Positions 49,829 through 64,000 of a stretch of 64,000 bases of DNA are shown here, in pieces (the stretch's first letter is position 1; each line of letters opens with the position of its first letter). Both the position numbers and the translations under genes were made by a program. Source of the DNA: a virus (lineage: Duplodnaviria; Caudoviricetes). The notes under the pieces are model-generated. The model saw nothing but the letters and a program-made list of their open reading frames with translations. It ran no database searches and was not told where the DNA came from. Location: positions 1-64,000 of IMG/VR virus record IMGVR_UViG_3300038300_000071; one strand, given 5' to 3'.

Positions 49829-50209
49829 ATGTTAAAAAATGAAGGCGTTTATTGTTCAGTAGGTCTAAGGGAGTCGCGAGGCTGCTTGGTCATTTATGAT
49901 AAGAAGGAACTAGACGGTTCTTTCTCTGGATTTTTGATTAATAGCGACGGAGCTCTAAGGAAGTATGAATGCGGAGTTTATCATCGTGAGAACGATCAGC
50001 CAGCCAGAGTAACGAAGGGCGGAGCTATGATTTGGTATATCGATGGAAAGATGAGAAGAGATTATGGCCTTCCTTGTTTGATAACCGATTCTGGAGAAAG
50101 AGTTTGGTTCTCAGAGAGTTCTGACGGACACATGAATAAAGATCGTACAATTTCACTAGAAGCATTGAATGGTGCTTTGGTTATTGGATTTAAAGAGATT
50201 GTAGAATAA
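49829..50209 (+). CDS. Protein with HRxxxPA-type repeats
   Basis: YHRENDQPA...WYIDG..RR..GLP. Confidence 0.55.
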   Translation: MLKNEGVYCSVGLRESRGCLVIYDKKELDGSFSGFLINSDGALRKYECGVYHRENDQPARVTKGGAMIWYIDGKMRRDYGLPCLITDSGERVWFSESSDGHMNKDRTISLEALNGALVIGFKEIVE

Positions 50210-50232
50210 TATTAAAAAGAAGGAGACTTGTT

Positions 50233-50968
50233 GTGCCTAGATTAAAGCCAATGAAGAAAGAAGAAGTAATGGAGTTGCTTGACACTCTTAATGGAGCCAC
50301 GAAAATTGGCAAAAGTAGCGATGGTTCAAGGATTCACATAAGATATAGAAAGTTTACAAAGGATACTGCTTTGTCAGTTCAAGAGCGTGAAAGAGCTAAG
50401 GATCTGAAGATTAAAGATGATCGATATACTGGACGTTTGGATCGTGTTTATAAAAGTGGCAGTGGAGATACAATAATGACAATGTTAGTTGAGCTTGAAA
50501 GAGATCATAAGTATAGATCTTTCAATCTCGATAAAGGTGAATTAATAACAATAGCAGTTCTCGGAAACTGAAAGGATTAGAAAAATGGCTTTGAAAAAAT
50601 TTACAACAGCAGATAAGAAAAAGATTGAACTTCCACCGAAGGCGATAACTATAAATACGCACGGGAAGATAGTTTTCAACAAAAGTGTTGAAATGTCATA
50701 TGATTTTAAAGAAAATTTAAAGTATGCCGTTATATGGTTCGATGATGTCAAGAATTTGGTTTCAATTTCATTTGCTGGAAGTGGGAAAGACGATGGAGCT
50801 ATGGAAGTTTCTCACTCTGACAGTGTTGGTTATCATATAAATGCGAAATCTTTTTTAACATGGGCAAAAATACCTTTCGAGAGAACTGCAACTTTCCCAA
50901 TGTCAGAAAAGGATAATCGTTTTATTTTTACTTTAAAGAAGAGTAAGCTCAAGAAGCCGCAAAAGTGA
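50233..50968 (+). CDS. Two hypothetical proteins (50233-50571, WYL/Sm-like YRSF motif; 50585-50968)
   Basis: ORF track and SD sites. Confidence 0.5.
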
Positions 50969-51558
50969 TAACGGTTATTACCCCCACGTACAAGAGGCCA
51001 AAAGATATAATAGAGAGGGCTGTAGGCTCTCTCAGGGCTCAAACGTATGTAAAGTGGAATCAGATAATATGTTCTGATGGAAGAGCTGAGGAAGTGCCTA
51101 GAAGGATAGCCGAGTCGGAAGAGAACAAACATCGAGTAAGTTATACAAATTCAAGCAAGAGTTATAATGACTATGGGCCGGGTGTAAGGGCCGAGATGCT
51201 GGAGAGAGTTGACACTGAGTATGTTTGTTTCCTTGATGATGATAATATCCTAATGCCTACTTATCTTGAAAAAATGATAAAGGCGATAGAGGATGATGGG
51301 GTTGATTTGGCAATTTGTCATTGTCTTCATTATGGGCCTCTTCCTCGAAGTTTCGGCAAAGCTCCAAAGATAGTAACTGGAATGCCTCCAAAGCTTTATA
51401 ATATTGATACTATACAGATAGTATGTAAGACTGAAGCGATTAGGGATATTGGCTGGCAAACAGAGAGTGGATATTACGCTGACGGAGTTACTTATGAGAA
51501 GTTGGCAGAGAAGTATAAATATGTAGAAGTTCCAGAAGTGTTGGCACTCCATTTGTAG
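50965..51558 (+). CDS. Glycosyltransferase family 2
   Basis: VITPTYKR, SL.AQTY, SDG, YVCFLDDDN. Confidence 0.88.
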   Translation: MITVITPTYKRPKDIIERAVGSLRAQTYVKWNQIICSDGRAEEVPRRIAESEENKHRVSYTNSSKSYNDYGPGVRAEMLERVDTEYVCFLDDDNILMPTYLEKMIKAIEDDGVDLAICHCLHYGPLPRSFGKAPKIVTGMPPKLYNIDTIQIVCKTEAIRDIGWQTESGYYADGVTYEKLAEKYKYVEVPEVLALHL

Positions 51559-51619
51559 GGATATATTTTAATATTTTTTTAATATTTTTTCCCATTGTAA
51601 ATGGAATTAGGAGCAATAA

Positions 51620-52378
51620 ATGAGTATTATTAGTTTTGAGAAGGATTTCTTCGTAGAGGTCATCAAAGGTAATGTGTCAGGGCACTCAATGGTCAATAAA
51701 TTTGGATATAACCTATCCATAGACACAGGTTCAGTCCCTGAGGATGTTTGGAACGGCGGAGGTTTATATGCTGCGTTTAACGCAACAGCAGCAGAGATTG
51801 TCGAGGTGTTTTCATCTGATGCTGCGGATGATTCAGCGGGTACTGGGGCGCGGACAGTGGATTTGTTCGGGCTAGATGGTAGTTATAATGAAACATCAGA
51901 AACTGTTATTCTTGATGGAGTTACGCCAGTTAACACAGTTAATTCTTATTTAAGGCTAGATAGAGCTATTGTTATTACGGCGGGTACTGGCGGCTCTAAT
52001 GCTGGAGTCATAACAGCTCGGCAGAGTGTGACAACCGCAAATGTCTTCACGGCCATTCCGATTTCCCGCAATCAAACAAATATAGCAGCCTATACCATTC
52101 CAGCGGGAAAAACGGGCTATTTATATTCTCTTGGGGTAACGGTGTCGAAGGCTACAGATACTGAAGCCCAGTTTGATCTTTTTGTTAGACCATTCGGGGA
52201 AGTGTTTCAAGGCAAAGATCCAGGTGTGGCATCAAAGGCTGGTGGACAATACATTCGAAACACTCACCCGTGGCTTGAGATTACTGAAAAGTCTGACATT
52301 GTTGTCAGAGTTAGTTCAGTAGGAGCTAACGGTACTCAGGTTGACGCAAACTTCGCTATACTATTAGTTGACAATTAA
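51620..52378 (+). CDS. Putative virion structural protein
   Basis: DF..EV..G.V.G.S.VNKFG.N, TGART...GLD, AAYTIPAGKTGY motifs common in phage structural ORFs. Confidence 0.55.
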   Translation: MSIISFEKDFFVEVIKGNVSGHSMVNKFGYNLSIDTGSVPEDVWNGGGLYAAFNATAAEIVEVFSSDAADDSAGTGARTVDLFGLDGSYNETSETVILDGVTPVNTVNSYLRLDRAIVITAGTGGSNAGVITARQSVTTANVFTAIPISRNQTNIAAYTIPAGKTGYLYSLGVTVSKATDTEAQFDLFVRPFGEVFQGKDPGVASKAGGQYIRNTHPWLEITEKSDIVVRVSSVGANGTQVDANFAILLVDN

Positions 52379-52441
52379 AGAATGCGAAGTAGTCGTAAGA
52401 ACAAATGATGTGTGAGTATGAATAAATATTTAAAAAGTTAC

Positions 52442-52470
52442 TTGACATGTAGGCAATTAAGAAGTATATT
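52442..52470 (+). promoter_or_regulatory. Sigma70 promoter of tRNA cluster 1
   Basis: TTGACA-17 nt-TATATT. Confidence 0.85.
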
Positions 52471-52513
52471 TGTGTTATAAGATTTAAAAACAATTTAAAA
52501 AGAGAAAGAAAAA

Positions 52514-52591
52514 ATGTTTAACAAGATTACAGCGATTGAACCTAAAGGGCCGGAAGCGATTAAGCTTTCAGGGCTAGGTGCGTTGCTGTAG
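52514..52591 (+). CDS. Putative attenuator leader peptide 1 (MFNKITAIEPKGPEAIKLSGLGALL)
   Basis: 25 codons; codons 7-17 are all A/I/E/P/K/G, matching the downstream tRNAs; contains the antiterminator segment 52564-52575. Confidence 0.8.
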   Translation: MFNKITAIEPKGPEAIKLSGLGALL

Positions 52592-52620
52592 TGATTTAAA
52601 AAACATTAGTAACAATCTTT

Positions 52621-52659
52621 AAAAGCCCTGAAAGCGTAAAAGCTCTCAGGGCTTTTTTT
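52621..52659 (+). terminator. Attenuator terminator upstream of tRNA cluster 1
   Basis: AGCCCTGAAAGC/GCTCTCAGGGCT stem plus T7; the 5' arm is perfectly complementary to 52564-52575. Confidence 0.88.
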
Positions 52660-52673
52660 ATGTAAAAATTTAA

Positions 52674-52747
52674 CTGTGTGTATGTCAGTCTGGTAGACAA
52701 CTCCCCTTGGATGGGAGAAGCCGTTCGTTCAAATCGAACCACACAGA
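52674..52747 (+). tRNA. tRNA-Pro(TGG), with A37
   Basis: CTGTGTG/CACACAG acceptor, CTCCC-CTTGGAT-GGGAG, TTCAAAT T loop. Confidence 0.85.
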
Positions 52748-52758
52748 CTTTTTAAATT

Positions 52759-52832
52759 GGGGAATTAGCTCATTTGGCTAGAGCGCTGCCTTTGCAAGGC
52801 AGAGGTAACGAGTTCGAACCTCGTATTCTCCA
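52759..52832 (+). tRNA. tRNA-Ala(TGC)
   Basis: GGGGAAT/ATTCTCC (G3:U70), CTGCC-TTTGCAA-GGCAG. Confidence 0.93.
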
Positions 52833-52927
52833 CTGGTTGGTTTGAGTTTCAGTTAGTATTTTCTGTTCTCATGTAGACAAAAATGGAAAAATGAAGGAAA
52901 GGCAACCTTTTGAAAAAATGTCTATAT

Positions 52928-53002
52928 GCTACGATATGCAAATTAGTTAAGCAGCTTTTCTGATAAAGAAGTGATTTTCAGGTGCAAGTCCTGATCGTAG
53001 TA
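52928..53002 (+). tRNA. tRNA-Ile(GAT)
   Basis: GCTACGA/TCGTAGT, CTTTT-CTGATAA-AGAAG, atypical T loop TGCAAGT. Confidence 0.78.
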
Positions 53003-53008
53003 CTTTAA

Positions 53009-53079
53009 GTCTCTATGGTGTAATGGTAGCACAAGCGGTTTTCATCCGCTAGGACTCGGATCGTAACCGTGTAGAGGTA
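53009..53079 (+). tRNA. tRNA-Glu(TTC)
   Basis: GTCTCTA/TAGAGGT, AGCGG-TTTTCAT-CCGCT, atypical T loop ATCGTAA. Confidence 0.78.
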
Positions 53080-53161
53080 TTTTAAGAAATAAAAGATGAA
53101 GTATTTAAGAGTTAGATGTAGATTTTAAAAAAAGTGATTGTATAGTAGTTCAAGTAATTAA

Positions 53162-53235
53162 CGGAATGTAGCGCAGTCTGGTAGCGCGTCTCGTTTGGGA
53201 CGAGAAGGTCGCAGGTTCGATCCCTGTCATTCCGA
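53162..53235 (+). tRNA. tRNA-Pro(TGG), second copy
   Basis: CGGAATG/CATTCCG, TCTCG-TTTGGGA-CGAGA. Confidence 0.93.
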
Positions 53236-53297
53236 TTTTTTAAAAAGAAAATAATAGGACGCAAGTGGGTTCTGAAATATGATAGGGATTTGGTAAA

Positions 53298-53963
53298 ATG
53301 GTAAAGAATTTAAATTTTGTAGTTTTAGCTTTAATTTTGGTTGTTTCTTTTGGTTGTGAGACTTTAGTGAAGAGGAGTTCTCTGGGGTCTTATGAAAAAG
53401 TTCTTTCATGGGGAGAAAGCGAAAAATTATATTATAGTAATTATAATTTTGTATATGTTGAGAGAGGAAAGAGTCATACGTTTGATGGAGTGAGTCGTGT
53501 TTATGATGCGGAGTTGATTGGATCAAGACAGGGAGAGAATTTAACTGTTTCCGAAGTTAGAGTCTTCTACAGAGATAAGTCCAAGTCATTTAAAGTAAAC
53601 AGGCCCGTTCTGAGTTTTGGAAATACTAAAGAGAATGGATATGGAGATAAGATTAAGACAGGCGGAATGCATTACATGTCGGCTGGATATCTTGATGATC
53701 TTTTGGCAGATGTTGGCAGATATAGGAAGTTGCTTGCGGGCAGTTATGAGCATTCTTCTGGCGCTAAAATAGTCCTAGATGAGAATGGAGAGGGTGTTTC
53801 TGGGAGTGAGAAGATTTTATTGTCAAATCAGTTTGGAAGGTCTGATCTTGTACTTACGAATGGACAAAGAAATCTTCCAGTTTTATCATTTGATGAAGGC
53901 GGCATGGTTCTTGGAAACGAGAAACATAAAATAGTTTTCAAGAAGATTAATGTTAAAAAATAA
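53298..53963 (+). CDS. Putative lipoprotein within the tRNA cluster
   Basis: Signal peptide with a lipobox-like VSFGC. Confidence 0.55.
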   Translation: MVKNLNFVVLALILVVSFGCETLVKRSSLGSYEKVLSWGESEKLYYSNYNFVYVERGKSHTFDGVSRVYDAELIGSRQGENLTVSEVRVFYRDKSKSFKVNRPVLSFGNTKENGYGDKIKTGGMHYMSAGYLDDLLADVGRYRKLLAGSYEHSSGAKIVLDENGEGVSGSEKILLSNQFGRSDLVLTNGQRNLPVLSFDEGGMVLGNEKHKIVFKKINVKK

Positions 53964-53977
53964 GATTTATGATTGTT

Positions 53978-54097
53978 GATCATGCTGCGGTATGGTCGCA
54001 CTTTGATGACATGGCAATTTCGCTACCGCATCAAAGATCGAATTGGATAGCGGTATCCGATTTGACGGAATTGAGCAACTGCCGAAAAGGGTGCTCA
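53978..54097 (+). ncRNA. Candidate structured ncRNA (pseudoknot plus two hairpins)
   Basis: TGCGGTA/TACCGCA and CTTTGA/TCAAAG in A-B-A'-B' order; AATTGGATA/TATCCGATT; TGAGCA/TGCTCA. Confidence 0.45.
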
Positions 54098-54100
54098 CAA

Positions 54101-54216
54101 CAGTGTATGGCTGATATTGGTTAGGCTCGTCGATATTTATGATTACTAAATACACATTTAATGTGGCGGTGATTTCTATGATCTTCGATATTTGGGTTCG
54201 ATTCCCGAAACACTGA
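54101..54216 (+). ncRNA. tRNA-like RNA with an extended anticodon arm
   Basis: CAGTGT/ACACTG acceptor, D-arm with TGGTTA, TTGGG-TTCGATT-CCCGA T arm; about 60-nt hairpin replaces the anticodon arm. Confidence 0.6.
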
Positions 54217-54242
54217 TAGTTTTGAAAAGAAGAGTAGTATAT

Positions 54243-54314
54243 GCGAAAGTAGCTCAATGGTAGAGCACCATCCTTCCAAGTTGGTTGTTGCGGGTTCGAG
54301 TCCCGTCTTTCGCT
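54243..54314 (+). tRNA. tRNA-Gly(TCC)
   Basis: GCGAAAG/CTTTCGC, loop CTTCCAA, U73. Confidence 0.92.
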
Positions 54315-54342
54315 TTTAGAATTATAAATTGGAGAATCCATA

Positions 54343-55064
54343 ATGGGAATATTTTATTCATATTGCACAAGATGCAATAAACAACTTAGGTATTTTATTG
54401 AGTATGGTCATGATGGAATCGAGTGTGATGTATGTTCTCATTTCAATATCGATAGTGATGTAAAGGGAACACTTTTTAAATATAACAATGGCAGGCCGGA
54501 TGGCGCATTGAATATATGGGGAGAAGAAATAATGGAAAGTAAAATGAAACGAAAGATAAAACATAGCATTTAAAGCCTTCTAAGTTGGGGAGGCAAAAAT
54601 TAATGCCTCCGTAGCTCAGTTGGTTAGAGCATCTGACTTTTAATCAGAATGTCATGGGTTCGAATCCCATCGGGGGCACTTTCAAAAGGGAGACGTTCGT
54701 GAACAACATAGATTATTTAAGAGAAGATTTAGCTCGGATTCTAGATAAGAGCAGTAGTCTGAGTTGTGAGTTTCTAAGTGCAGTTCTTGAGTTGAATATT
54801 ATGCGAAGAGAATTTAAAGTTTCGATGGGATCTAATTTTGATGGATTCTTGACAATAGGGTATAAAGAAGTATATAAATAAAAACAAAGAGGAAATAACA
54901 TGGTTTACAGTTTTAATTTTAGTGCGGAAGATGAAGTAGACGTAATTCAAGTTTTGGAAACTAAAAATGGATACGTTTACTTTCAAGATGGTGATAGAAA
55001 GGGAAGAATAGAAGAAAAGTTCTTTGCGATGAACTTTACCCATGTTGAAGCTCCACTGGTATAA
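54343..55064 (+). CDS. Small ORFs between tRNAs (54343-54573; 54699-54881 with GTG start; about 54900-55064)
   Basis: SD sites; the first two carry the DG.L.I motif. Confidence 0.55.
54605..54678 (+). tRNA. tRNA-Lys(TTT)
   Basis: GCCTCCG/CGGGGGC, TCTGA-CTTTTAA-TCAGA. Confidence 0.93.
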
Positions 55065-55082
55065 TAAAAAGAAACAATATAT

Positions 55083-55118
55083 AAAAAGGACTTACTTTAA
55101 ATAGTAAGTCCTTTTTTT
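55083..55118 (+). terminator. Intrinsic terminator, probable end of tRNA operon 1
   Basis: AAGGACTTACT/AGTAAGTCCTT stem plus T run. Confidence 0.75.
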
Positions 55119-55141
55119 GTATAGTAATTATAAAATATACT

Positions 55142-55678
55142 ATGGTGGAAGAAATGTCGGTTCGTAAAGTAATATGGTTAACGGGAATGTCTGGTGCGGG
55201 AAAATCAACTATATCTTCAATGCTTGAAGAGAAGCTTTTGGTTAAAGGGTATAGTGTGAAAATACTAGATGGAGATGAAGTCAGGGAAAATCTAACTTCT
55301 GATCTTGGCTTTAGCAAGAAGGACAGAGATGAAAATGTAAAAAGAATTTCTTATGTGGCTAAATGTATATGCGATGTTGACGGGGTGGCCATAGTTGCTG
55401 CTATTTCTCCATACAAGGATGCAAGGCAGAAGGCTATATCTTTAATTGGTGAAGATAACTTTTTAGGAGTTTTTGTCAAGTGTGATATTGATACGCTGAT
55501 AAGCAGAGATGTTAAGGGTTTGTATGAAAAGGCTATTCGTGGTGACATTCCAAATTTCACAGGAATAAGCGATCCTTATGAAGATCCTTTAGGTTTTGAA
55601 GTTGTTTGTAATACAGCGGTAGAGACTATTGAAGAATCGGCAAACAAGATAATCAAGAAGTTGGAAGGTAAATCCTAA
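55142..55678 (+). CDS. cysC: Adenylyl-sulfate kinase
   Basis: WLTGMSGAGKST, LDGDEVR, LGFSKKDRDEN, ISPY, RDVKGLY, FTGISDPYE. Confidence 0.96.
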   Translation: MVEEMSVRKVIWLTGMSGAGKSTISSMLEEKLLVKGYSVKILDGDEVRENLTSDLGFSKKDRDENVKRISYVAKCICDVDGVAIVAAISPYKDARQKAISLIGEDNFLGVFVKCDIDTLISRDVKGLYEKAIRGDIPNFTGISDPYEDPLGFEVVCNTAVETIEESANKIIKKLEGKS

Positions 55679-55981
55679 GTTTTTTTATATTCTAGCCGTA
55701 TGTAAACAGCTAGGGTCTAAAGATGTCAAGAAAAGTTATCATAAGTCTTTTTAAGTGCAGGCTAGATTGCAATCCTTTTGAGACGATAGAGAATAAGCCA
55801 GACGGGGCGTTGATGATATGGGGATTGAGCAGCATTCCAAGCTGTTATGATTTTCAGAATTATTTAGATTATATCAGAGATGCAATCGATATGAATAAAT
55901 CAAAGTAAAATTCTTCTTTAAAAATTATATTTCTTTTATAAAATTCATATTAGTAAATAAATGCTAACGTGGAGTTTTTAA

Positions 55982-56980
55982 ATGGGATATATCAAGAATC
56001 CTTCTGATAATGGTCAGTTTTGGAGAGAATCAGCGGCTAATGATAGCGCCTCTGTTTGGCATGGTTTTGATAGTAAAAATAACGGTAAAGACAAATTTTT
56101 CAAATCAGAAACATTGCCAAATAATCCAGATACCTTGAAAGAAACTGGAACTGTTTCTTCTAGTGGCGATAGGCTGTTGGCTGGTGTTTATGGAGATATT
56201 CCAAGTGTTTCTCTTTGGACTCCTGAGTCTATTATTACTGACGTTTGGTTTGATGCTTCTGATTCTAGCACCATTACTGAAATTGGGGGCCGAGTTAGTC
56301 AGTTGGATGACAAGAGTAATAATGCTGTACCTCAGAATATTGCTCAAGGGGTTGGATCGGAGCAGCCACAGACAGGAGTTGACACTTTAAATGGTTTGAA
56401 TGTGCTTACATTCGATGAGGCTTTCGATGAGGGTTTACAAAAGAATGGATGGGATAACATCGGTAAAGCGGGTAGTTTTTCTGTCTTTACTGTTGGGAAG
56501 ATGACGTCGAGTACAAATGGAAGCTTCCTAAACCTTCAAGATGATATGCATACTTACAGAAATAGATTTGATCCATATGGAAAGAGAACGTCGAGCAGTG
56601 TTCCAAAGTCCGTCAGTTATACAGAGCCAAGCTCGGCATACATTCTTAACGGAAATGCAAGATATGATGTGAGTCACACACTTCCTGACAGTTATTTCAA
56701 CGTTTTCATAAATGGTACACAAGAGGGTGTTAATGCCTTCTTCGACAATCCATTGCCAGAGAATGCCCCCAGTCCAAGGCTTGCAATGATGACTGCCAAC
56801 AATCCTGCCATTACAAATAGTGGAATAGTTGCAGAAGTTATAATCACCGAGGATATTGATGAAGTGTCTAGACAGAGAGTGGAAGGCTATTTGGCTTGGA
56901 AGTGGGGATTGGTAGACAGTCTTCCATCTAATCACCCTTATAAAAATAAACCTCCATACATTACTAGCGGAAACTTATAG
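55982..56980 (+). CDS. Lectin-like cassette gene 1 (constant N-terminus plus variable LamG/ConA-like domain)
   Basis: MGYIKNPSDNGQ.WRESAA...KSETLPN, then WFDASD...EGYLAWKWG. Confidence 0.8.
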   Translation: MGYIKNPSDNGQFWRESAANDSASVWHGFDSKNNGKDKFFKSETLPNNPDTLKETGTVSSSGDRLLAGVYGDIPSVSLWTPESIITDVWFDASDSSTITEIGGRVSQLDDKSNNAVPQNIAQGVGSEQPQTGVDTLNGLNVLTFDEAFDEGLQKNGWDNIGKAGSFSVFTVGKMTSSTNGSFLNLQDDMHTYRNRFDPYGKRTSSSVPKSVSYTEPSSAYILNGNARYDVSHTLPDSYFNVFINGTQEGVNAFFDNPLPENAPSPRLAMMTANNPAITNSGIVAEVIITEDIDEVSRQRVEGYLAWKWGLVDSLPSNHPYKNKPPYITSGNL

Positions 56981-57043
56981 AGATTAGAGATATTTCTTTT
57001 ATAAAATTCATATTGGTAAATAAATGCTAATATGGAGATTCAA

Positions 57044-57985
57044 ATGGGATATATCAAGAATCCTTCTGATAATGGTCAGTTTTGGAGAGAATCAGCGGCT
57101 AATGACAGCGCTTCTGTTTGGCATGGTTTTGATAGTAAGAATAATGGTAAAGACAAATTTTTCAAATCAGAAACATTGCCAAATAATACAAAGGCTTTAA
57201 GTGAGTCTGGGTCTATTGCTTCTAGTGGTAATAGATTAATTGCTGGGGTTTATGGAGATCAAGCTTCTCTTCCTGCAAGTCTTTGGAATCCTTCTCTGAT
57301 GACATCTGTGGGTTGGTACGATGCTGATGATAGTTCTACAATTACAGAGTCTGCTGGAGCTATTAGCCAATGGGATGATAAGTCTGGGAATGACAATCAT
57401 GCTGTTCAGGGCGTTGGAAGCAAACAGCCAATTTACAATGCAAGTGATCCCGTGTTCGGTGGAAAGCCTTCCATATTGGGCGTTTTGGGTGATTATTTAG
57501 AAACTCCATCTATGTCAATAAATAGAATGTATTTAACTTTATATTTGGACGGTGTGGCAACGGCATGGCCAAATCATAATGCGGTAGTATCAGGGCCTTC
57601 TTTCCGTTTAACGGGTAGAGTTGGTGATGTTCACGTATGGGATGGCCCTAGAGACAATAAGAATTTTGATTTTAATGGAAGTACATTTAGGGATGGAAGT
57701 ACTGTTGATGTTAATTACGATCCAACTGGTTTGCCGATGGCGGGTGACATCTTTAGGATAAACGCTGAAAGCACAAAGACTCAAGTTTGGAGGTTGATGG
57801 GGAATACTCAAACATATACAACTTGGCATGGTGGTTTGGCAGAGGTGATATTTACAGACGGATCAGAGGATTTCAACACACAGCAAAAAATAGAAGGTTA
57901 CCTTGCTTGGAAGTGGGGATTTGTGGACAAGTTTCCAGCTGAGCATCCTTACAAGTCAGCTCCTCCATATATAGATGCTTATTAA
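57044..57985 (+). CDS. Lectin-like cassette gene 2
   Basis: Same architecture; start aligned to the paralogs. Confidence 0.8.
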   Translation: MGYIKNPSDNGQFWRESAANDSASVWHGFDSKNNGKDKFFKSETLPNNTKALSESGSIASSGNRLIAGVYGDQASLPASLWNPSLMTSVGWYDADDSSTITESAGAISQWDDKSGNDNHAVQGVGSKQPIYNASDPVFGGKPSILGVLGDYLETPSMSINRMYLTLYLDGVATAWPNHNAVVSGPSFRLTGRVGDVHVWDGPRDNKNFDFNGSTFRDGSTVDVNYDPTGLPMAGDIFRINAESTKTQVWRLMGNTQTYTTWHGGLAEVIFTDGSEDFNTQQKIEGYLAWKWGFVDKFPAEHPYKSAPPYIDAY

Positions 57986-58054
57986 GATCATTTAAAAATT
58001 ATATTTCTTTTATAAAATTCATGTTAGTAAATAAATGCTAATATGGAGATTTAA

Positions 58055-58996
58055 ATGGGATATATCAAGAATCCTTCTGACAATGGTCAGTCTTGGAGAG
58101 AATCAGCCGCTGATAATTCGGCTATCCGTTGGCATGGTTTCGATAGTAAGAATAATGGTAAAGACAAATTTTTCAAATCAGAAACATTACCAAATGATCC
58201 AGACGCACTTGTTGCTGCTGGAGTCAATGCTTCTAGCGGTGATAGACTATTGGCTGGTGTTTATGGAGATATTCCAAGTGTTAATCTTTGGACTCCTGCT
58301 GGAGTCGTTACAGAACTTTGGCTTGATGCCACCGATGCTTCAACTATTACAGAATTATCTGGATCTGTGAGTCAGTGGGATGATAAGAGTGGTAGCGGTA
58401 ACGACTTCCCTCAGGGAAATGCATCCAGACAACCTATAACGGGAGTAAGAACTCTCAATGGCCTAAATGTTCTCGATTTCGATGGTGGTGATAGCATGCA
58501 AAGAGGGAGTTTGGCGAATGTGGCGAATGACTTCATTATGGTAGGAGTTTGGGATGTAGATTCGGGCGCAACACTGTTTTCAGAAACAGGTTCTCCTCAG
58601 GCTTGGAATGCAACAACTGCTGGTCTCACTACGCAATTGGATGGCACTATGCTTTACTCTGGAGGCACGATAAGCGGAGCAACTGTCGTTTCTTTTGATA
58701 TGAATCCTACGGGCCTTAATGCAGAGGCTTTTGTAAACGGAGAAAGTCAGGCAATACTTGCTCTGACGCAAAGCCTTGGAAATAGTACTGCCCGTATAGC
58801 TGCGAACTTTGTTGGCGGTTCTAATGTAGTTGGAGGAATGGGTGAAATGGTTATCTCCGATGACCGATCAGTAGAAACTCGTCAAAAGATCGAAGGATAC
58901 TTGGCTTGGAAGTGGGGTACGGAATCTGATCTTCCAGTTGGACATCCGTATAAGAACAAACCTCCATATATCACTAGTGGAAGTTTATTAGTTTAA
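58055..58996 (+). CDS. Lectin-like cassette gene 3
   Basis: Same architecture. Confidence 0.8.
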   Translation: MGYIKNPSDNGQSWRESAADNSAIRWHGFDSKNNGKDKFFKSETLPNDPDALVAAGVNASSGDRLLAGVYGDIPSVNLWTPAGVVTELWLDATDASTITELSGSVSQWDDKSGSGNDFPQGNASRQPITGVRTLNGLNVLDFDGGDSMQRGSLANVANDFIMVGVWDVDSGATLFSETGSPQAWNATTAGLTTQLDGTMLYSGGTISGATVVSFDMNPTGLNAEAFVNGESQAILALTQSLGNSTARIAANFVGGSNVVGGMGEMVISDDRSVETRQKIEGYLAWKWGTESDLPVGHPYKNKPPYITSGSLLV

Positions 58997-59054
58997 AAGG
59001 ATATTTCTTTTATAAAATTCATGTTGGTAAATAAGTGCTAATATGGAGATTTAA

Positions 59055-59996
59055 ATGGGATATATCAAGAATCCTTCTGACAACGGACAGTTTTGGAGAG
59101 AATCAGCGGCCAATGATAGTGCTTCTGTTTGGCACGGTTTTGATAGTAAAAATAATGGTAAAGATAAATTTTTCAAATCAGAAACATTGCCAAATGATCC
59201 AAAATCTTTAATTGCATCTGGAGCTATTGCTTCTAGTGGCGATAGATTTTTAGCTGGTGTTTATGGTGATCTTCCAAAAGTTTCTCTTTGGACTCCTGCA
59301 AAAATAGCCACATCTCTTTGGCTGGATGCCTCTGATCCTGCTACAATAACTGAGTCGGTAGGATCGGTCAGTCAGTGGGATGATAAGTCTGGAAATGGTA
59401 ACAATGTAATACAAGCCTCAGGAGTCAATCAGCCAGAAACTGGAGTAAGAGATATTAATGGATTAAACGTTCTTGATTTTGATGGCTCGGACAGCATGAC
59501 AAGAGGGGCTTTGGCGAGCAGATCTGATGATTTCATTGTGGTTGGCGTTTGGTATGTGGATTTTGTTATTTCAAGTCGCAGGAAGAATACGATGTTCGCA
59601 CAATCTGGGATATCTCAAGATTGGAATATGACAACCTCCGATATAGTCTTGCAGAGTGATGGATCTGATGCTTATTCTGGAGGCGTTTTGGCTGGTGTTA
59701 GTAGTATTATTTCTTATGATGTTAATTTTTCTGGATTGAATACTGAGGCTTTTATTAATGGTTCCAGTGAAGCGAATGTTGTGATGTCTCAGTCAGTAGG
59801 AAATTCCACAACAAATATTGGCATAGGGTTTACCGCTTCGAATTTCAATTTTTTCGGAGGTATGGGAGAGATTATTATCTCTAACGATAGATCTGTATCA
59901 ACTCGTCAAAAAATAGAAGGCTATCTTGCTTGGAAGTGGGATCAAGTTTCCAAGCTTCCTGCTGATCATCCTTATAAGAATGTACCACCCTGTTGA
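59055..59996 (+). CDS. Lectin-like cassette gene 4
   Basis: Same architecture. Confidence 0.8.
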   Translation: MGYIKNPSDNGQFWRESAANDSASVWHGFDSKNNGKDKFFKSETLPNDPKSLIASGAIASSGDRFLAGVYGDLPKVSLWTPAKIATSLWLDASDPATITESVGSVSQWDDKSGNGNNVIQASGVNQPETGVRDINGLNVLDFDGSDSMTRGALASRSDDFIVVGVWYVDFVISSRRKNTMFAQSGISQDWNMTTSDIVLQSDGSDAYSGGVLAGVSSIISYDVNFSGLNTEAFINGSSEANVVMSQSVGNSTTNIGIGFTASNFNFFGGMGEIIISNDRSVSTRQKIEGYLAWKWDQVSKLPADHPYKNVPPC

Positions 59997-60041
59997 TGGT
60001 GGTTGACTGAATCTTTATAAATACTAACATGGAGTTTTTAA

Positions 60042-60986
60042 ATGGGATATATCAAGAATCCTTCTGACAATGGTCAGTCTTGGAGAGAATCAGCGGCCAA
60101 TGATAGCGCTTCTATCTGGCATGGTTTCGATAGTAAGAATAATGGTAAAGACAAATTCTTTAAATCAGAAACATTGCCCAATGGTACAAAGGCTTTAAGT
60201 GAGTCTGGGTCTATTGCTTCTAGTGGTAATAGATTATTAGCTGGTGTTTATGGTAATCAATCTTCACTTCCTGCAAGCCTTTGGACTCCTAACAATATAA
60301 CTACATCAGCTTGGTTTGATGCTTCTGATGCGTCAACTATCACAGAGTCTGCCAATAAAGTTTCTCAATGGGATGATAAAAGTGGAAATAGCAAACACGC
60401 TGTGCAAGCAACTGGATCTCAACAACCGACCTATAAGCCTACCGATGCTAATATGAATGGGATGGGTAGTATCGGAGTTACAAGTAATACTGGAGCGAAA
60501 GGATTAGAAGTACCATCATTCGGAGCGAAGATTTGCTATACAGTCATTAGAAATGACAACGCCAACTTCTCATCATTCGATGTGCTGCTTGCAGGTGCGC
60601 TTGATAGATACCTTGTTCGTGGTAGTTCAGGAACTCCAGACTTCTATACTATCGGAACTCTTGAGTTCAATGATTTTACATATAAGAATGGTTCCACGGT
60701 AAGCACGGCCTTAAACGTACTTCCAATGCCGACAGCAACGATTTTCAAATTTGAAAGTGCCGCAATAAGAGAGCAGACATGGAGTTTCGGGTTTGGTAAT
60801 CAATGGGCTGGCAATAATAGAACATGGGATGGTGCTTATTCAGAGTTTATATTTACAGATGGAACTGAGGACTTATCTACACAGCAAAAGATCGAAGGAT
60901 ACCTAGCTTGGAAATGGGGAACAGAAGCTTCATTGCCTGTTAGTCATCCTTACAAGTCAGCTCCTCCATATATAGATGCTTATTAA
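60042..60986 (+). CDS. Lectin-like cassette gene 5
   Basis: Same architecture. Confidence 0.8.
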   Translation: MGYIKNPSDNGQSWRESAANDSASIWHGFDSKNNGKDKFFKSETLPNGTKALSESGSIASSGNRLLAGVYGNQSSLPASLWTPNNITTSAWFDASDASTITESANKVSQWDDKSGNSKHAVQATGSQQPTYKPTDANMNGMGSIGVTSNTGAKGLEVPSFGAKICYTVIRNDNANFSSFDVLLAGALDRYLVRGSSGTPDFYTIGTLEFNDFTYKNGSTVSTALNVLPMPTATIFKFESAAIREQTWSFGFGNQWAGNNRTWDGAYSEFIFTDGTEDLSTQQKIEGYLAWKWGTEASLPVSHPYKSAPPYIDAY

Positions 60987-61044
60987 TAGGATATTTCTTT
61001 TATAACTTTGTATTAGTAAATAAATGCTAACGTGGAGATTTTAA

Positions 61045-62076
61045 ATGGGATATATCAAGAATCCTTCTGACAATGGTCAGTTTTGGAGAGAATCAGCGGC
61101 TAATGATAGCGCTTCTATCTGGCATGGTTTCGATAGTAAGAATAATGGTAAAGACAAATTTTTCAAATCAGAGACATTGCCAAATGATCCAGCCGCACTT
61201 TCTGCCGCTGGAGTTAATGCTTCCAATGGAGATAGATTTTTAGCTGGTGTTTATGGAGATCAGTCTTCACTTCCTGCAAGCCTTTGGAATCCCGCTGAAA
61301 TATCCACTGAAGCTTGGTTCGATGCCAATGATGCTTCAACTATTACAGAATCAGCAGGAGCTGTAAGTCAGTGGGATGACAAGTCTGGCAATGTAAGAAA
61401 TCTTATTAACGCAACTGGCGTTCAACAGCCAATGACTGGAATTAGAACAATAGGCGGTTTAAACGCCCTAGATGCCGACGGGGTTACTCAACACCTATAT
61501 AACATTACAAACTTTGCATTTCCTGCCAGTGGAAACTTTATGGTGTTTGCGGTTGCAGTAGTAGACTCTTGCAGTGACAGAAATCAAGCTATATGGGCTT
61601 GGGATGATGATGTTGATATACAACTTGATAGTGCGCAAAACATTAATGAGTTCAGAGGTCGATTGTTTAACACTGACCCGACAAATCAAAACTTGCTATA
61701 CTCAACTAGCGACCCTGCACCATCTGGCTCAGTTATCGGACTAGACACGATGTGGACTACGGTCATGGACTTCACCGCAACGGAGAGTCACTTATATCGG
61801 AACGGACTTAATAGTGTGCTTAATCCAACAAAACTATATGCTAACAAGGTAACTAGTACTGGATTGCAACAGTTTACTGCGTTTCTAGGTGGATTCCCTA
61901 TTGCGTTTACTCATTTGCTTGATGGCGCAATAGGAGAGTTGCTTATGGTAGAAGGAACTGACACTATTACTCAACAAAAGATGGAAGGCTATCTTGCTTG
62001 GAAGTGGGGACTAGTCGCTAAACTCCCATCTGGTCATCCTTACAAGTCAGCTCCTCCATATATAGATGCTTATTAA
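61045..62076 (+). CDS. Lectin-like cassette gene 6
   Basis: Same architecture. Confidence 0.8.
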   Translation: MGYIKNPSDNGQFWRESAANDSASIWHGFDSKNNGKDKFFKSETLPNDPAALSAAGVNASNGDRFLAGVYGDQSSLPASLWNPAEISTEAWFDANDASTITESAGAVSQWDDKSGNVRNLINATGVQQPMTGIRTIGGLNALDADGVTQHLYNITNFAFPASGNFMVFAVAVVDSCSDRNQAIWAWDDDVDIQLDSAQNINEFRGRLFNTDPTNQNLLYSTSDPAPSGSVIGLDTMWTTVMDFTATESHLYRNGLNSVLNPTKLYANKVTSTGLQQFTAFLGGFPIAFTHLLDGAIGELLMVEGTDTITQQKMEGYLAWKWGLVAKLPSGHPYKSAPPYIDAY

Positions 62077-62079
62077 TAG

Positions 62080-62221
62080 GATATTTCTTTTATAAAATTC
62101 GTATTAGTAAATAGCTTGGTACGACCCATCAGATGAGAGCACTATAACTGAATCGGCAGGAGCGGTATCTCAGCTTGATGATAAGAGTGGTAATGATTAC
62201 GACCTCGTTCAAGCTTCTGGA
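62080..62221 (+). pseudogene. Remnant of a seventh cassette
   Basis: Upstream element GATATTTCTTTTATAAAATTC.TATTAGTAAATA fused directly to AWYDPSDESTITESAGAVSQLDDKSGNDYDLVQASG (62114-62221); no start codon. Confidence 0.8.
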
Positions 62222-62277
62222 GAATTAGTCATTAAGTCTAGATTGAGAGAATAAGTGATAAAAACTCTAAAAAGAAC

Positions 62278-62306
62278 TTGCAATTAACTATTTATCATGG
62301 TATATT
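62278..62306 (+). promoter_or_regulatory. Sigma70 promoter of tRNA cluster 2
   Basis: TTGCAA-17 nt-TATATT with extended TG. Confidence 0.8.
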
Positions 62307-62362
62307 GGTTACACAGAAGAAAAAAGTATTATTAAAAACAATTTAAAAGAAAGAGATTTAAA

Positions 62363-62440
62363 ATGAAATTTTCAAGCTACAATTTAAGCAATTGTTCGAG
62401 TTACTTATATAGTAATTCGTATGATCCTGTGCTTAAATGA
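62363..62440 (+). CDS. Putative attenuator leader peptide 2 (MKFSSYNLSNCSSYLYSNSYDPVLK)
   Basis: 25 codons; codons 4-20 are all S/Y/N/L(TTA)/C, matching the downstream tRNAs. Confidence 0.85.
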   Translation: MKFSSYNLSNCSSYLYSNSYDPVLK

Positions 62441-62465
62441 GGTAGCAAATAATTTTAAATATTTG

Positions 62466-62506
62466 AATCCCCTTTTGAGCTAATCACTCAGAAGGGGATT
62501 TTTTTT
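62466..62506 (+). terminator. Attenuator terminator upstream of tRNA cluster 2
   Basis: AATCCCCTTTTGAG/CTCAGAAGGGGATT 14-bp stem plus T run. Confidence 0.88.
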
Positions 62507-62519
62507 GTTTGGATTTTAT

Positions 62520-62609
62520 GGAGATAGTCCGGCATGGACGAGGACACTGTTTTGAAAGCAGCTGCGCACTAATACGGCGTCGAGGGTTCGATTCCCTCTG
62601 TCTCCGCCA
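62520..62609 (+). tRNA. tRNA-Ser(TGA), with encoded CCA
   Basis: GGAGATA/TGTCTCC-G-CCA, loop TTTGAAA, long variable arm. Confidence 0.88.
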
Positions 62610-62641
62610 TTTTTAAAAGATAGGAAAGTAAGAAGTTAAAT

Positions 62642-62714
62642 GAACAATTGGCCGATTGGATATAGGCGCAGGATTGCAAACCCTGTTAGGCGAGTTCGAT
62701 TCTCGCATTGTTCT
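62642..62714 (+). tRNA. tRNA-Cys(GCA)
   Basis: GAACAAT/ATTGTTC, loop TTGCAAA, U73. Confidence 0.88.
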
Positions 62715-62718
62715 CTAA

Positions 62719-62808
62719 GGAATGGTATAACGAAATTGGTATCGTCGCTGGTTGCTAACCAGTTCAGCAGGTTAAATGGCTGTGTGGGTTCGAGTCCCAC
62801 TCATTCCG
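62719..62808 (+). tRNA. tRNA-Ser(GCT)
   Basis: GGAATGG/TCATTCC-G, loop TTGCTAA, long variable arm. Confidence 0.9.
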
Positions 62809-62828
62809 CTTTAATGAAGAAGTTTGAA

Positions 62829-62905
62829 GTGTATATTTGTCCAAGGTGGCGATATGTTACGCATTGTAGTTCAGGAACTAGGTTCGAGTCCTAGCTTATA
62901 TGCAC
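62829..62905 (+). ncRNA. Atypical tRNA-like element (possible CAT anticodon; non-canonical geometry)
   Basis: GTGTATAT/ATATGCAC stem, CTAGG-TTCGAGT-CCTAG T arm, irregular D and anticodon arms. Confidence 0.45.
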
Positions 62906-62913
62906 TTTTTTTT

Positions 62914-62986
62914 GATGGAGTAACCAAATTGGTATTGGTCTTGCCTGTTAAGCAAGTATGAGTGAGTTCGATTCTCATCTCCATCT
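62914..62986 (+). tRNA. tRNA-Asn(GTT)
   Basis: GATGGAG/CTCCATC, CTTGC-CTGTTAA-GCAAG; unusual U discriminator. Confidence 0.8.
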
Positions 62987-62990
62987 TTTT

Positions 62991-63062
62991 AGGCGTGTAT
63001 CTCAATGGTAGAGACTTCGGTTGTTACCCGAAAGGTTGCTGGTTCGAGTCCAGCCGTGCCTG
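62991..63062 (+). tRNA. tRNA-Asn(GTT), second copy
   Basis: AGGCGTG/CGTGCCT-G, TTCGG-TTGTTAC-CCGAA. Confidence 0.88.
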
Positions 63063-63078
63063 TTGTTAGTAAGAATAA

Positions 63079-63160
63079 GCCGCTGTGGGGGAATTGGCAT
63101 ACCCGACGAGTTTAAGCCTCGTTGCCTTTGTGCATGAGAGTTCGAATCTCTCCAGCGGTA
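63079..63160 (+). tRNA. tRNA-Leu(TAA)
   Basis: GCCGCTG/CAGCGGT-A, ACGAG-TTTAAGC-CTCGT, long variable arm. Confidence 0.9.
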
Positions 63161-63167
63161 TTAACAT

Positions 63168-63241
63168 AGCTCTGTAGCCGAATTGGCATAGGCGGCAGTC
63201 TCAAAAACTGTAATTTACAGGTTCGAGTCCTGTCAGAGCTA
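63168..63241 (+). tRNA. tRNA with CAA anticodon (Leu) and short variable loop
   Basis: AGCTCTG/CAGAGCT-A, GCAGT-CTCAAAA-ACTGT, variable loop AATTT. Confidence 0.8.
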
Positions 63242-63245
63242 CTAT

Positions 63246-63320
63246 GTATTCATAGCTTAATGGTAAAGCGCAGTAGCAAATTGTATGAGCAAGATGTTGG
63301 TTCGATTCCAGCTGAATACG
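63246..63320 (+). pseudogene. tRNA-like element with intact acceptor, D and T arms but no anticodon stem
   Basis: GTATTCA/TGAATAC, GCTT-AATGGT-AAAGC, GTTGG-TTCGATT-CCAGC. Confidence 0.6.
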
Positions 63321-63339
63321 TTAATGGAAATAAATATAA

Positions 63340-63421
63340 GTCGTCGTATATGTCTAAGGAGGACATCCAGTCTGTAAAACTGGCGCTTTGAGCTCGGTGG
63401 GATCGTTACCCACAGGCGACA
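63340..63421 (+). tRNA. tRNA-Tyr(GTA)
   Basis: CCAGT-CTGTAAA-ACTGG, long variable arm, T loop ATCGTTA, A73. Confidence 0.8.
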
Positions 63422-63425
63422 TTTT

Positions 63426-63470
63426 AAAAAAACTCTTTTAGTCTGATATAATAGGCTGAAAGAGTTTTTT
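63426..63470 (+). terminator. Terminator closing tRNA operon 2
   Basis: AAACTCTTTTAGTCT/AGGCTGAAAGAGTTT stem plus T run. Confidence 0.7.
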
Positions 63471-64000
63471 ATGGATTACAGACATGAGCGAAGGAACGGG
63501 AGCGTGTAATGGAAAATATACTTAAAGGGTTGCATGAGAAAGATCCTGCAAACAGGGTTGAATTTTCTTGTTTGAATAAGAATAAAGTTTTATGTTGGAT
63601 ATGCTATAAGGACGGCAAGAGGATTTTATCTGGATGCGAATCGGGAAAGAATCACAAAGAGGCCTTGGAAAATACAATGAATAACTTAAAAGAATAAGGA
63701 TTGTTATGACTAATTCTACAGCGAAGTATCCTTTTATTCCAGAGTCAGCGGAAGGAAGAGTTGTTAATATTACTTGGACGGATGACGATGAATTTAAAAT
63801 GTTTGGAAAGTATAAGTGGAAGAATGGCGAAACTAAAACGATCAAGACGGAAGAGTGGTGGGTGGTTAGAAATGATGTTCACGGAAGATCTACTCTGTAT
63901 AATTCTAGTCATGGAAGTGATAACTCGAATTCATTTACGACTGAGAACGGGATTACGGTAAGAGTTCAAATGAACAATGATTATCTTCAAGTTGGAGAGA

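Follow-up and report, generated by a model that had tools for sequence, protein, structure and literature searches.

Among the leader attenuators of enterobacteria, thrL, ilvL (of ilvGMEDA) and ivbL are multivalent, and trpL, hisL, leuL and pheL each respond to a single amino acid. The pheM leader of pheST is a leader-peptide attenuator that gates a component of translation upon slow decoding of its cognate codons, and T-box riboswitches attenuate transcription according to the state of one specific tRNA, which is recognised in an anticodon-specific manner. In the attenuator model, the position of the ribosome on the leader chooses either the 1:2 and 3:4 hairpins or the 2:3 antiterminator (PMC3082878). 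Here we describe short leader open reading frames (ORFs), each followed by an intrinsic terminator, that stand ahead of the tRNA gene clusters of a phage and whose codons match the tRNAs encoded downstream. The window analysed is the whole stretch of 64,000 nucleotides at positions 1-64,000 of the 202,452-bp IMG/VR virus record IMGVR_UViG_3300038300_000071, and the remainder of that record was included in the comparison. We consider it probable that each tRNA block is gated by a ribosome-mediated (trp-type) leader-peptide attenuator, which would place phage tRNA synthesis under demand-driven feedback control, module by module.

The phage leaders resemble those of enterobacteria in having a promoter-proximal ORF (14-32 codons in the enterobacterial cases) that is enriched in regulatory codons, with several amino acids possible per leader. 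They differ in that phage tRNA genes, and not biosynthetic enzymes, would be controlled, the product acting directly on the sensor, and in that the phage carries a set of modules that jointly cover all 20 amino acids. As judged from sequence, the leaders have every structural feature of the trp-type attenuator class that was tested, the antiterminator of leader 2 being a weak candidate, and the difference lies in the output: members of that class control genes whose products make the sensed amino acid or charge it, whereas here the downstream genes are tRNA genes and a few small ORFs of unknown function. The pheM leader differs from the phage modules in that it serves one amino acid and one enzyme, controls an aminoacyl-tRNA synthetase instead of a tRNA, and is cellular. 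T-boxes differ in that they bind the tRNA themselves, by means of a specifier codon together with the T-box sequence, and involve no translation, whereas the read-out in the phage would be a translating ribosome. Scanning positions 52000-64000 with cmscan at E values up to 0.1 produced no match to T-box or to the Rfam leader families (Trp, His, Leu, Thr, Phe), and the only matches were tRNA-related.

As blocks of tRNA genes in a large phage, with host-type promoters and small ORFs interspersed, the clusters are like those of the large virulent phages T5, T4 and KVP40; the annotated tRNA region of T5 differs in having promoters directly ahead of the tRNAs, and the pipeline described below found in it no module composed of a short ORF and a terminator. 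Full-text searches of the literature, and a reading of papers that included the genome paper of phage Atu_ph07 and a review of jumbo phages, gave no description of leader-peptide control of tRNA genes, and the words "leader", "attenuat" and "terminator" do not occur in the text of the Atu_ph07 paper. Early papers on T5 might touch on such control. What appears to be new is that transcription of tRNA genes would depend on a test, made by translation, of those codons that the tRNAs themselves decode; we found no earlier description of this.

Leader modules ahead of the tRNA clusters

The record has a G+C content of 37% and an estimated completeness of 62% (CheckV), and its long ORFs lie nearly all on the + strand. 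ARAGORN called 29 tRNA genes over the full record, and 14 of these make up two blocks within the window; matches to RF00005 above the cut-off numbered 28 over the same record, and several canonical tRNAs in tandem identify these blocks as phage tRNA gene clusters. A megablast search against GenBank phages matched only a short stretch of a Lys tRNA gene, and the source is a large, poorly sampled phage. The module was present at all four tRNA clusters (4/4), of which the first two lie in the window and the others farther along the record. The features of the four units are as follows.

52442-52470, + strand: unit 1 promoter, sigma-70-like, 17-nt spacer, 11/12 consensus positions
52486-52500, + strand: A/T-rich 15-mer of the 5' untranslated region, copy 1, exact match to copy 2
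52514-52591, + strand: leader ORF 1, 25 codons, stop TAG; sensor block at codons 4-17 (Lys 3, Ile 3, Ala 2, Glu 2, Pro 2, Gly 1, Thr 1)
52621-52660, + strand: leader 1 intrinsic terminator, segments 3 and 4 plus a T run; hairpin of -21.4 kcal/mol
52674-54679, + strand: tRNA cluster 1, Pro(TGG), Ala(TGC), Ile(GAT), Glu(TTC), Pro(TGG), Gly(TCC), Lys(TTT), called by ARAGORN (RF00005 46-79 bits)
55083-55116, no strand assigned: probable end of unit 1, a two-way terminator with a hairpin of 12-14 pairs and T runs on both strands
62278-62306, + strand: unit 2 promoter, sigma-70-like, 17-nt spacer, 9/12 consensus positions, extended -10 TG
62334-62348, + strand: A/T-rich 15-mer of the 5' untranslated region, copy 2, exact match to copy 1
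62363-62440, + strand: leader ORF 2, 25 codons, stop TGA; sensor block at codons 4-20 (Ser 7, Tyr 4, Asn 3, Leu 2, Cys 1)
62465-62508, + strand: leader 2 intrinsic terminator, 15-pair stem with 6 G-C pairs, then a T run; -20.4 kcal/mol
62520-63421, + strand: tRNA cluster 2, Ser(TGA), Cys(GCA), Ser(GCT), a poor CAT tRNA-like gene, Asn(GTT) twice, Leu(TAA), Leu(CAA), a second Cys-like gene and a probable, atypical Tyr(GTA)
63430-63470, + strand: terminator at the end of unit 2, 16-pair hairpin of -18.1 kcal/mol, then a T run
record 68141-68169: unit 3 promoter, 17-nt spacer
record 68207-68287: leader ORF 3, 26 codons, rich in Val/Arg/Asp/Gln, followed by a terminator
record 68396-70748: tRNA cluster 3 (outside the window), Val, Arg, Arg, CAT, Asp, Gln
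record 78338-78366: unit 4 promoter
record 78411-78497: leader ORF 4, 28 codons, rich in Thr/Gly/Phe/His/Trp/Met, followed by a terminator
record 78564-79435: tRNA cluster 4 (outside the window), Trp, Phe, His, Thr, Met, Gly

When the four modules were aligned, the promoter, the A/T-rich untranslated region and the type of terminator were found to be in common, but the ORF was not. The unit 1 promoter is the top-scoring site within 50000-64000, and a loose pattern found just eight strong sigma-70-like sites on the + strand of the entire 202 kb, four of which are the leader promoters. The leader ORFs, of 25-28 codons, start 44-57 nt past the -10 element; the four terminators, with stabilities of -19.7 to -21.4 kcal/mol and T runs, lie 11-40 nt ahead of the first tRNA. 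Of about 28 strong terminators on the + strand of the record, four only are preceded by an ORF of 25-28 codons, all of them ahead of tRNA clusters; of the remainder, most come after ordinary long ORFs, several lack any ORF immediately upstream, and two are preceded by ORFs of 41 and 54 codons.

An earlier note on this DNA had described the two leaders of the window as 25 residues long, placed behind promoters with a 17-nt spacer, sharing a sequence upstream of the start codon and stopping shortly before the terminator stem, and the measurements agree on each of these points, with the stop codon located 29 nt from the stem in leader 1 and 24-25 nt from it in leader 2. The shared sequence is the exact 15-mer, which ends 13 and 14 nt before the start codons of leaders 1 and 2. 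The note had also allowed that such a motif might turn out to be common before ordinary genes; it is not, because the record holds only two copies, even with one mismatch allowed, and both are at leaders. The 15-mer is absent from leaders 3 and 4, whose untranslated regions are just similarly A/T-rich. The 15-mer may act as a translation enhancer.

The leader residues that belong to the amino-acid set of their own cluster numbered 16/24, 18/24, 16/25 and 15/27 for leaders 1 to 4, while the off-diagonal counts were 0-8; for leader 1 they were 6, 0 and 5 with the other three clusters, and for leader 2 they were 3, 2 and 1. Binomial P values against the amino-acid usage of the phage itself were 6e-3, 6e-7, 1e-5 and 1e-4, and the true pairing of leaders with clusters was the best of 24 permutations (65 matches vs 47 for the runner-up). 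The four clusters together serve all 20 amino acids. The match of each of the first two leaders to its own cluster had been claimed in the note and was confirmed. Its claim that the two leaders share no amino acid holds for the sensor blocks and fails for the whole peptides, in which the first three and the last five to eight residues overlap. From the amino acids left over, it had predicted further leaders rich in Arg/Asp/Gln/His/Met/Phe/Thr/Trp/Val codons, and on sequence that its author had not seen, clusters 3 and 4 are each preceded by a promoter, an ORF of 26 or 28 codons and a strong terminator, with the counts of 16/25 and 15/27 given above. No cluster among the four had a leader of unrelated content. 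These results support the proposal that the tRNAs are divided into separately sensed modules, insofar as sensing may be judged from sequence.

One could argue that ordinary small ORFs of A/T-rich intergenic DNA happen to resemble the clusters, given that the ORFs are short and that the boundaries of the sensor blocks were chosen after inspection. The whole-peptide binomial tests, however, need no choice of block, and the product of their four P values is about 1e-17; moreover, the two leaders outside the window were predicted before being seen, and an independent test of synonymous codons, described below, gave a P value of about 2e-5. Chance is effectively refuted as an explanation, and we assign almost no probability to it.

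The correspondence extends to anticodons. With readability judged by standard wobble rules, the sensor blocks gave the following counts.

Leader 1, block codons 4-17: 13/14 readable by tRNAs of its own cluster
Leader 2, block codons 4-20: 17/17 consecutive codons readable under strict wobble
Leader 3, block codons 4-23: 17/20 readable if the CAT tRNA reads ATA
Leader 4, block codons 4-22: 13/19 readable

Isoacceptors are told apart as well. The sole Gly codon in the block of leader 1 belongs to the type that Gly(TCC) decodes, and leader 4 uses the Gly(GCC) type; both Leu codons in the block of leader 2 are of the type read by Leu(TAA); and Ile is written in leader 1 with the codon that Ile(GAT) reads, and in leader 3 with ATA. 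In a test conditioned on the amino acid, 31/34 informative codons were readable by anticodons of the leader's own cluster, compared with 20.2 expected from phage codon usage (P about 2e-5). The sensors shun the phage's commonest Ala, Gly and Pro codons and take G-ending codons that are read by U34 tRNAs. The synonymous-codon match, together with the discrimination of isoacceptors, argues that the design is matched to tRNAs and not merely to amino acids. The Leu codons of leader 4 were considered as sensors of the Leu(TAG) tRNA at 82217, which was ruled out, as unit 4 ends at a terminator at record position ~79584, before that gene.

The agreement at the level of synonymous codons bears on whether the same attenuation might serve a different signal, namely amino-acid starvation perceived as uncharged tRNA, by which tRNA synthesis would be coupled to the nutritional state of the host. 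A stalled ribosome cannot distinguish a missing tRNA from an uncharged one, and the architecture is that of the amino-acid attenuators, as in the model described for pheL (PMC3082878). The output, however, is unfit for such a signal, since extra tRNA does not relieve amino-acid starvation. In addition, sensing of amino acids does not require a match at the level of isoacceptors and synonymous codons, nor the avoidance of the commonest Ala, Gly and Pro codons in favor of those specific for the cluster's anticodons. We therefore regard starvation as an unlikely signal.

Alternative pairings in the leader transcripts

In their minimum-energy folds, all four leader transcripts form a hairpin within the ORF, in which the sensor block pairs with the ORF tail (1:2), followed by the terminator, and z-scores relative to shuffled sequences are -5.7 to -7.9. 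The strands that compete for the 5' arm of the terminator in the two leaders of the window are as follows.

52563-52576, + strand: leader 1 antiterminator 5' strand (segment 2), within codons 17-21; 12 contiguous pairs with the terminator 5' arm at ~52623-52635
62431-62443, + strand: leader 2 candidate antiterminator 5' strand (weak), spanning the stop codon; 9 pairs, in two blocks, with the terminator 5' arm

The antiterminator duplex of leader 1 (-22.6 kcal/mol) compares with -21.4 for its terminator hairpin, and in the ground state segment 2 is paired with the sensor block. In leader 2, the candidate antiterminator segment is paired with codons 7-9 in the ground state; its duplex alone has a stability of -5.3 kcal/mol, and the helix is present in a masked fold at -13.7 kcal/mol. 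The antiterminators of leaders 3 and 4 are weaker helices than that of leader 1.

The effect of the ribosome was modelled by masking its footprint at each codon, with the transcript taken before the 3' arm of the terminator is made. In this model the terminator 5' arm was sequestered as long as the A site was at or before codon 13, 19, 19 and 20 in leaders 1 to 4, respectively, and in all four leaders it was released once the ribosome entered the ORF tail or reached the stop codon. In each leader, this switch coincides with the point where the sensor block ends. As modelled, the geometry is that of trp-type attenuation, with 1:2, 2:3 and 3:4 pairings.

Folding is also where another view of the modules has to be weighed, according to which the terminators are constitutive, leaky insulators and the short ORFs are bystanders, translated or not, whose composition has some other cause, so that the position of a ribosome controls nothing. 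The weakness of the ribosome-binding sites speaks for this view, as do the terminators of leaders 2-4, which are far more stable than the antiterminators. Insulation leaves unexplained, however, why codons and anticodons match in 4/4 modules, and in two further phages as well, why the antiterminator strand begins at the point where the sensor block stops, and why short ORFs occur solely before the terminators of tRNA clusters. We judge insulation to be quite improbable.

Other phages and neighboring genes

A pipeline that seeks a terminator no more than 200 nt upstream of a tRNA, together with an ATG-initiated ORF, 10-50 codons long, whose end lies shortly upstream of that terminator, returns the four leaders and nothing else when applied to the present record. 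Applied to the 634,780-bp genome of an uncultured phage (GenBank LR745206.1), it detected seven leader ORFs:

342380-342475: rich in His, Lys, Phe, Trp; downstream tRNAs His, Phe, Trp, Lys
343630-343704: rich in Ser, Arg; downstream tRNAs Arg, Ser
365029-365115: rich in Tyr, Glu; downstream tRNAs Glu, Tyr
366081-366164: rich in Ile, Gly, Ala; downstream tRNAs Ile, Gly, Met
387700-387816: rich in Asn, Leu, Thr, Met, Val, Ile; 19 downstream tRNAs (Asn, Arg, Leu, Val, Ile, Thr, Met)
406703-406798: rich in Pro, Gln, Asp; downstream tRNAs Pro, Asp
407638-407688: seven Gln in 16 codons; three Gln tRNAs downstream

The true pairing of these leaders with their clusters was the best of 5040 permutations. 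One leader was found in the cultured Agrobacterium phage Atu_ph07, which grows on A. tumefaciens C58:

MF403008.1 339118-339246, - strand: coding sequence AUZ95228.1, 42 codons, annotated "hypothetical protein", followed by a terminator and nine tRNAs

Within AUZ95228.1, a stretch of 22 codons contains 19 that the nine tRNAs downstream (Ala, Arg, Phe, Pro, Ile, Tyr, Trp, Met and Glu) can read under strict rules, and a 9-nt stretch in its tail is complementary to a segment overlapping the terminator 5' arm. By these features AUZ95228.1 looks like a codon-matched leader peptide. The leaders of LR745206.1 and Atu_ph07 share with those described above the module and the matching of codons, but show no sequence homology to them, and the amino acids are partitioned otherwise. 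Every phage divides the amino acids among its clusters in its own way, yet leader and cluster still agree, which amounts to a kind of covariation and favors function.

No module was detected by the pipeline in the annotated tRNA region of T5, in RaK2 or in 121Q, nor in XacN1, although in the latter a GC-rich genome and the required T run may hide terminators. The one candidate in KVP40 precedes a block of 16 tRNAs and is hence uninformative. No DNA homologue of the Atu_ph07 leader was found among GenBank phages; a search for relatives by the proteins upstream of leaders 1 and 3 gave two distant loci without tRNAs and nothing further, and a scan of IMG/VR with the promoter pattern gave one unrelated match. 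On the sequences compared, the design appears to be widespread but not universal.

Several tRNA genes of the record call for comment. In cluster 2, default ARAGORN called seven genes, Rfam added a match at 63246-63320 (47 bits), and relaxed ARAGORN added 62829-62903, 63245-63321 and 63343-63421, so that the gaps are filled by the poor CAT gene (62829-62903), the second Cys-like gene (63245-63321) and the Tyr(GTA) gene (63343-63421), which has an unusual T loop. The atypical Tyr(GTA) gene may be argued to be functional because leader 2 holds Tyr codons. The CAT tRNA of cluster 3 is located at record 69309-69383; ATA makes up 44% of the Ile codons of the phage, and leader 3 has two ATA codons and no internal Met codon. 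Alignment of this tRNA to the annotated T5 tRNAs weakly favored Ile2 (score 19, vs 10 and 6 for fMet and Met), and in alignments to T5 Ile2, fMet and Met the initiator mismatch at 1:72 was not seen in the CAT gene of either cluster 3 or cluster 4. The cluster 3 CAT tRNA may be a lysidine-dependent reader of AUA.

At record 81060-81169, an Rfam tRNA match of 51.8 bits extends over 110 nt, which relaxed ARAGORN interprets as a tRNA for Thr that contains an intron of 37 nt, and no leader precedes it. A CTA (amber-reading) tRNA at record 85860-85946 has a long variable arm and its own promoter-like site upstream, and no leader ORF. Recoding of TAG by this suppressor was considered and is unsupported, as TAG still terminates 29/160 long ORFs and read-through gains little.

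A 221-amino-acid ORF of unknown function at 53298-53963 (+ strand), located in tRNA unit 1, has a hydrophobic, signal-like start that ends in Cys and is lipoprotein-like. Its sole homologue (56% identity) is on a 1591-bp ENA contig, directly after Ala, Ile and Glu tRNAs; the leader module was not found on that 1591-bp fragment. The ORF at 10858-12210 (+ strand, 450 amino acids) has a poly(A) polymerase head, RNA-binding and HD domains and resembles the CCA-adding tRNA nucleotidyltransferase, and such a putative CCA-adding enzyme would be in keeping with the phage's large investment in tRNAs of its own. Units 1 and 2 flank six tandem ORFs of 313-343 amino acids (55982-62076, + strand). A profile scan that covered the first and the last of the six matched both to phrog_10356, a family of virion structural proteins, and promoter-like hits with a period of ~1 kb suggest that the six ORFs are tandem paralogues.

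Proposed mechanism and its meaning

The mechanism we propose starts from what was observed, namely the anatomy of the modules, the match of codons to anticodons, the alternative pairings and the recurrence in other phages; from these we infer that the leaders are translated, that read-through into the tRNA genes is regulated and that slow decoding is the physiological signal sensed. Host sigma-70 RNA polymerase would start at the strong promoter and transcribe the short leader ORF. Ribosomes that pass quickly through the sensor block would proceed to the final five to eight codons, where they would cover segment 2 or unwind it; the 3:4 terminator would then form and no tRNAs would be made. If no ribosome were loaded, segment 2 would stay paired with the sensor block (1:2), and the terminator would form as well. 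Scarcity of any one matching aminoacyl-tRNA would stall the ribosome in the sensor block and leave segment 2 free to pair with the terminator 5' arm (2:3), which would allow polymerase to read through into the tRNA genes. The new tRNAs would then speed decoding of the leader, closing a negative feedback loop, and with non-overlapping sensor sets in the four modules each set of tRNAs would be topped up independently.

Several observations weigh against this mechanism. At equilibrium, the terminators of leaders 2-4 win at every position of the ribosome, and the antiterminator duplexes of these leaders reach -5 to -12 kcal/mol, compared with about -20 for the terminators; given such weak antiterminators, control there would have to be kinetic. 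The Shine-Dalgarno-like sequences of the leaders are purine-rich but weaker than those of typical genes of the phage. The sensor blocks contain non-cognate codons (6/19 in leader 4, 3/20 in leader 3 and 1/14 in leader 1), and the Tyr tRNA required by the four Tyr codons of leader 2 is the atypical gene called by relaxed ARAGORN only. Protein-coding ORFs (53298-53963 and 54343-54573) are interspersed among the tRNAs of cluster 1, and four tRNAs have no leader (two Thr, Leu-TAG and the CTA suppressor). Finally, no close relatives were found that could show compensatory changes in the helices.

If attenuation operates as proposed, natural triggers may include mismatch of codon usage, host shut-off and tRNA-cleaving defence. 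We put forward, tentatively, that a circuit of this kind is general in large phages, where it would gauge decoding capacity for each group of anticodons and turn on replacement tRNAs when those of the host are depleted, whether by anticodon nucleases of host defence or by the phage's own shut-off of the host; it would amount to a translational sensor of tRNA-targeting immunity wired to the countermeasure. The proposed attenuation is directly testable, because the cultured phage Atu_ph07 carries the design and the promoters and terminators are of host type. If the mechanism holds, the leaders would also aid annotation, in that they delimit the tRNA transcription units and allow the identities of tRNAs to be predicted: the ATA codons of leader 3 suggest that the CAT tRNA of cluster 3 is the AUA reader, and the Tyr codons of leader 2 point to a Tyr tRNA that default callers missed. 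The modules would constitute compact natural sensors of codon-specific decoding speed that could be re-used as reporters. For the phage itself, the attenuator mechanism, if true, would mean that its tRNA sets are under demand-driven feedback for each module, and would provide a concrete mechanism linking phage tRNAs to the depletion of host tRNAs.

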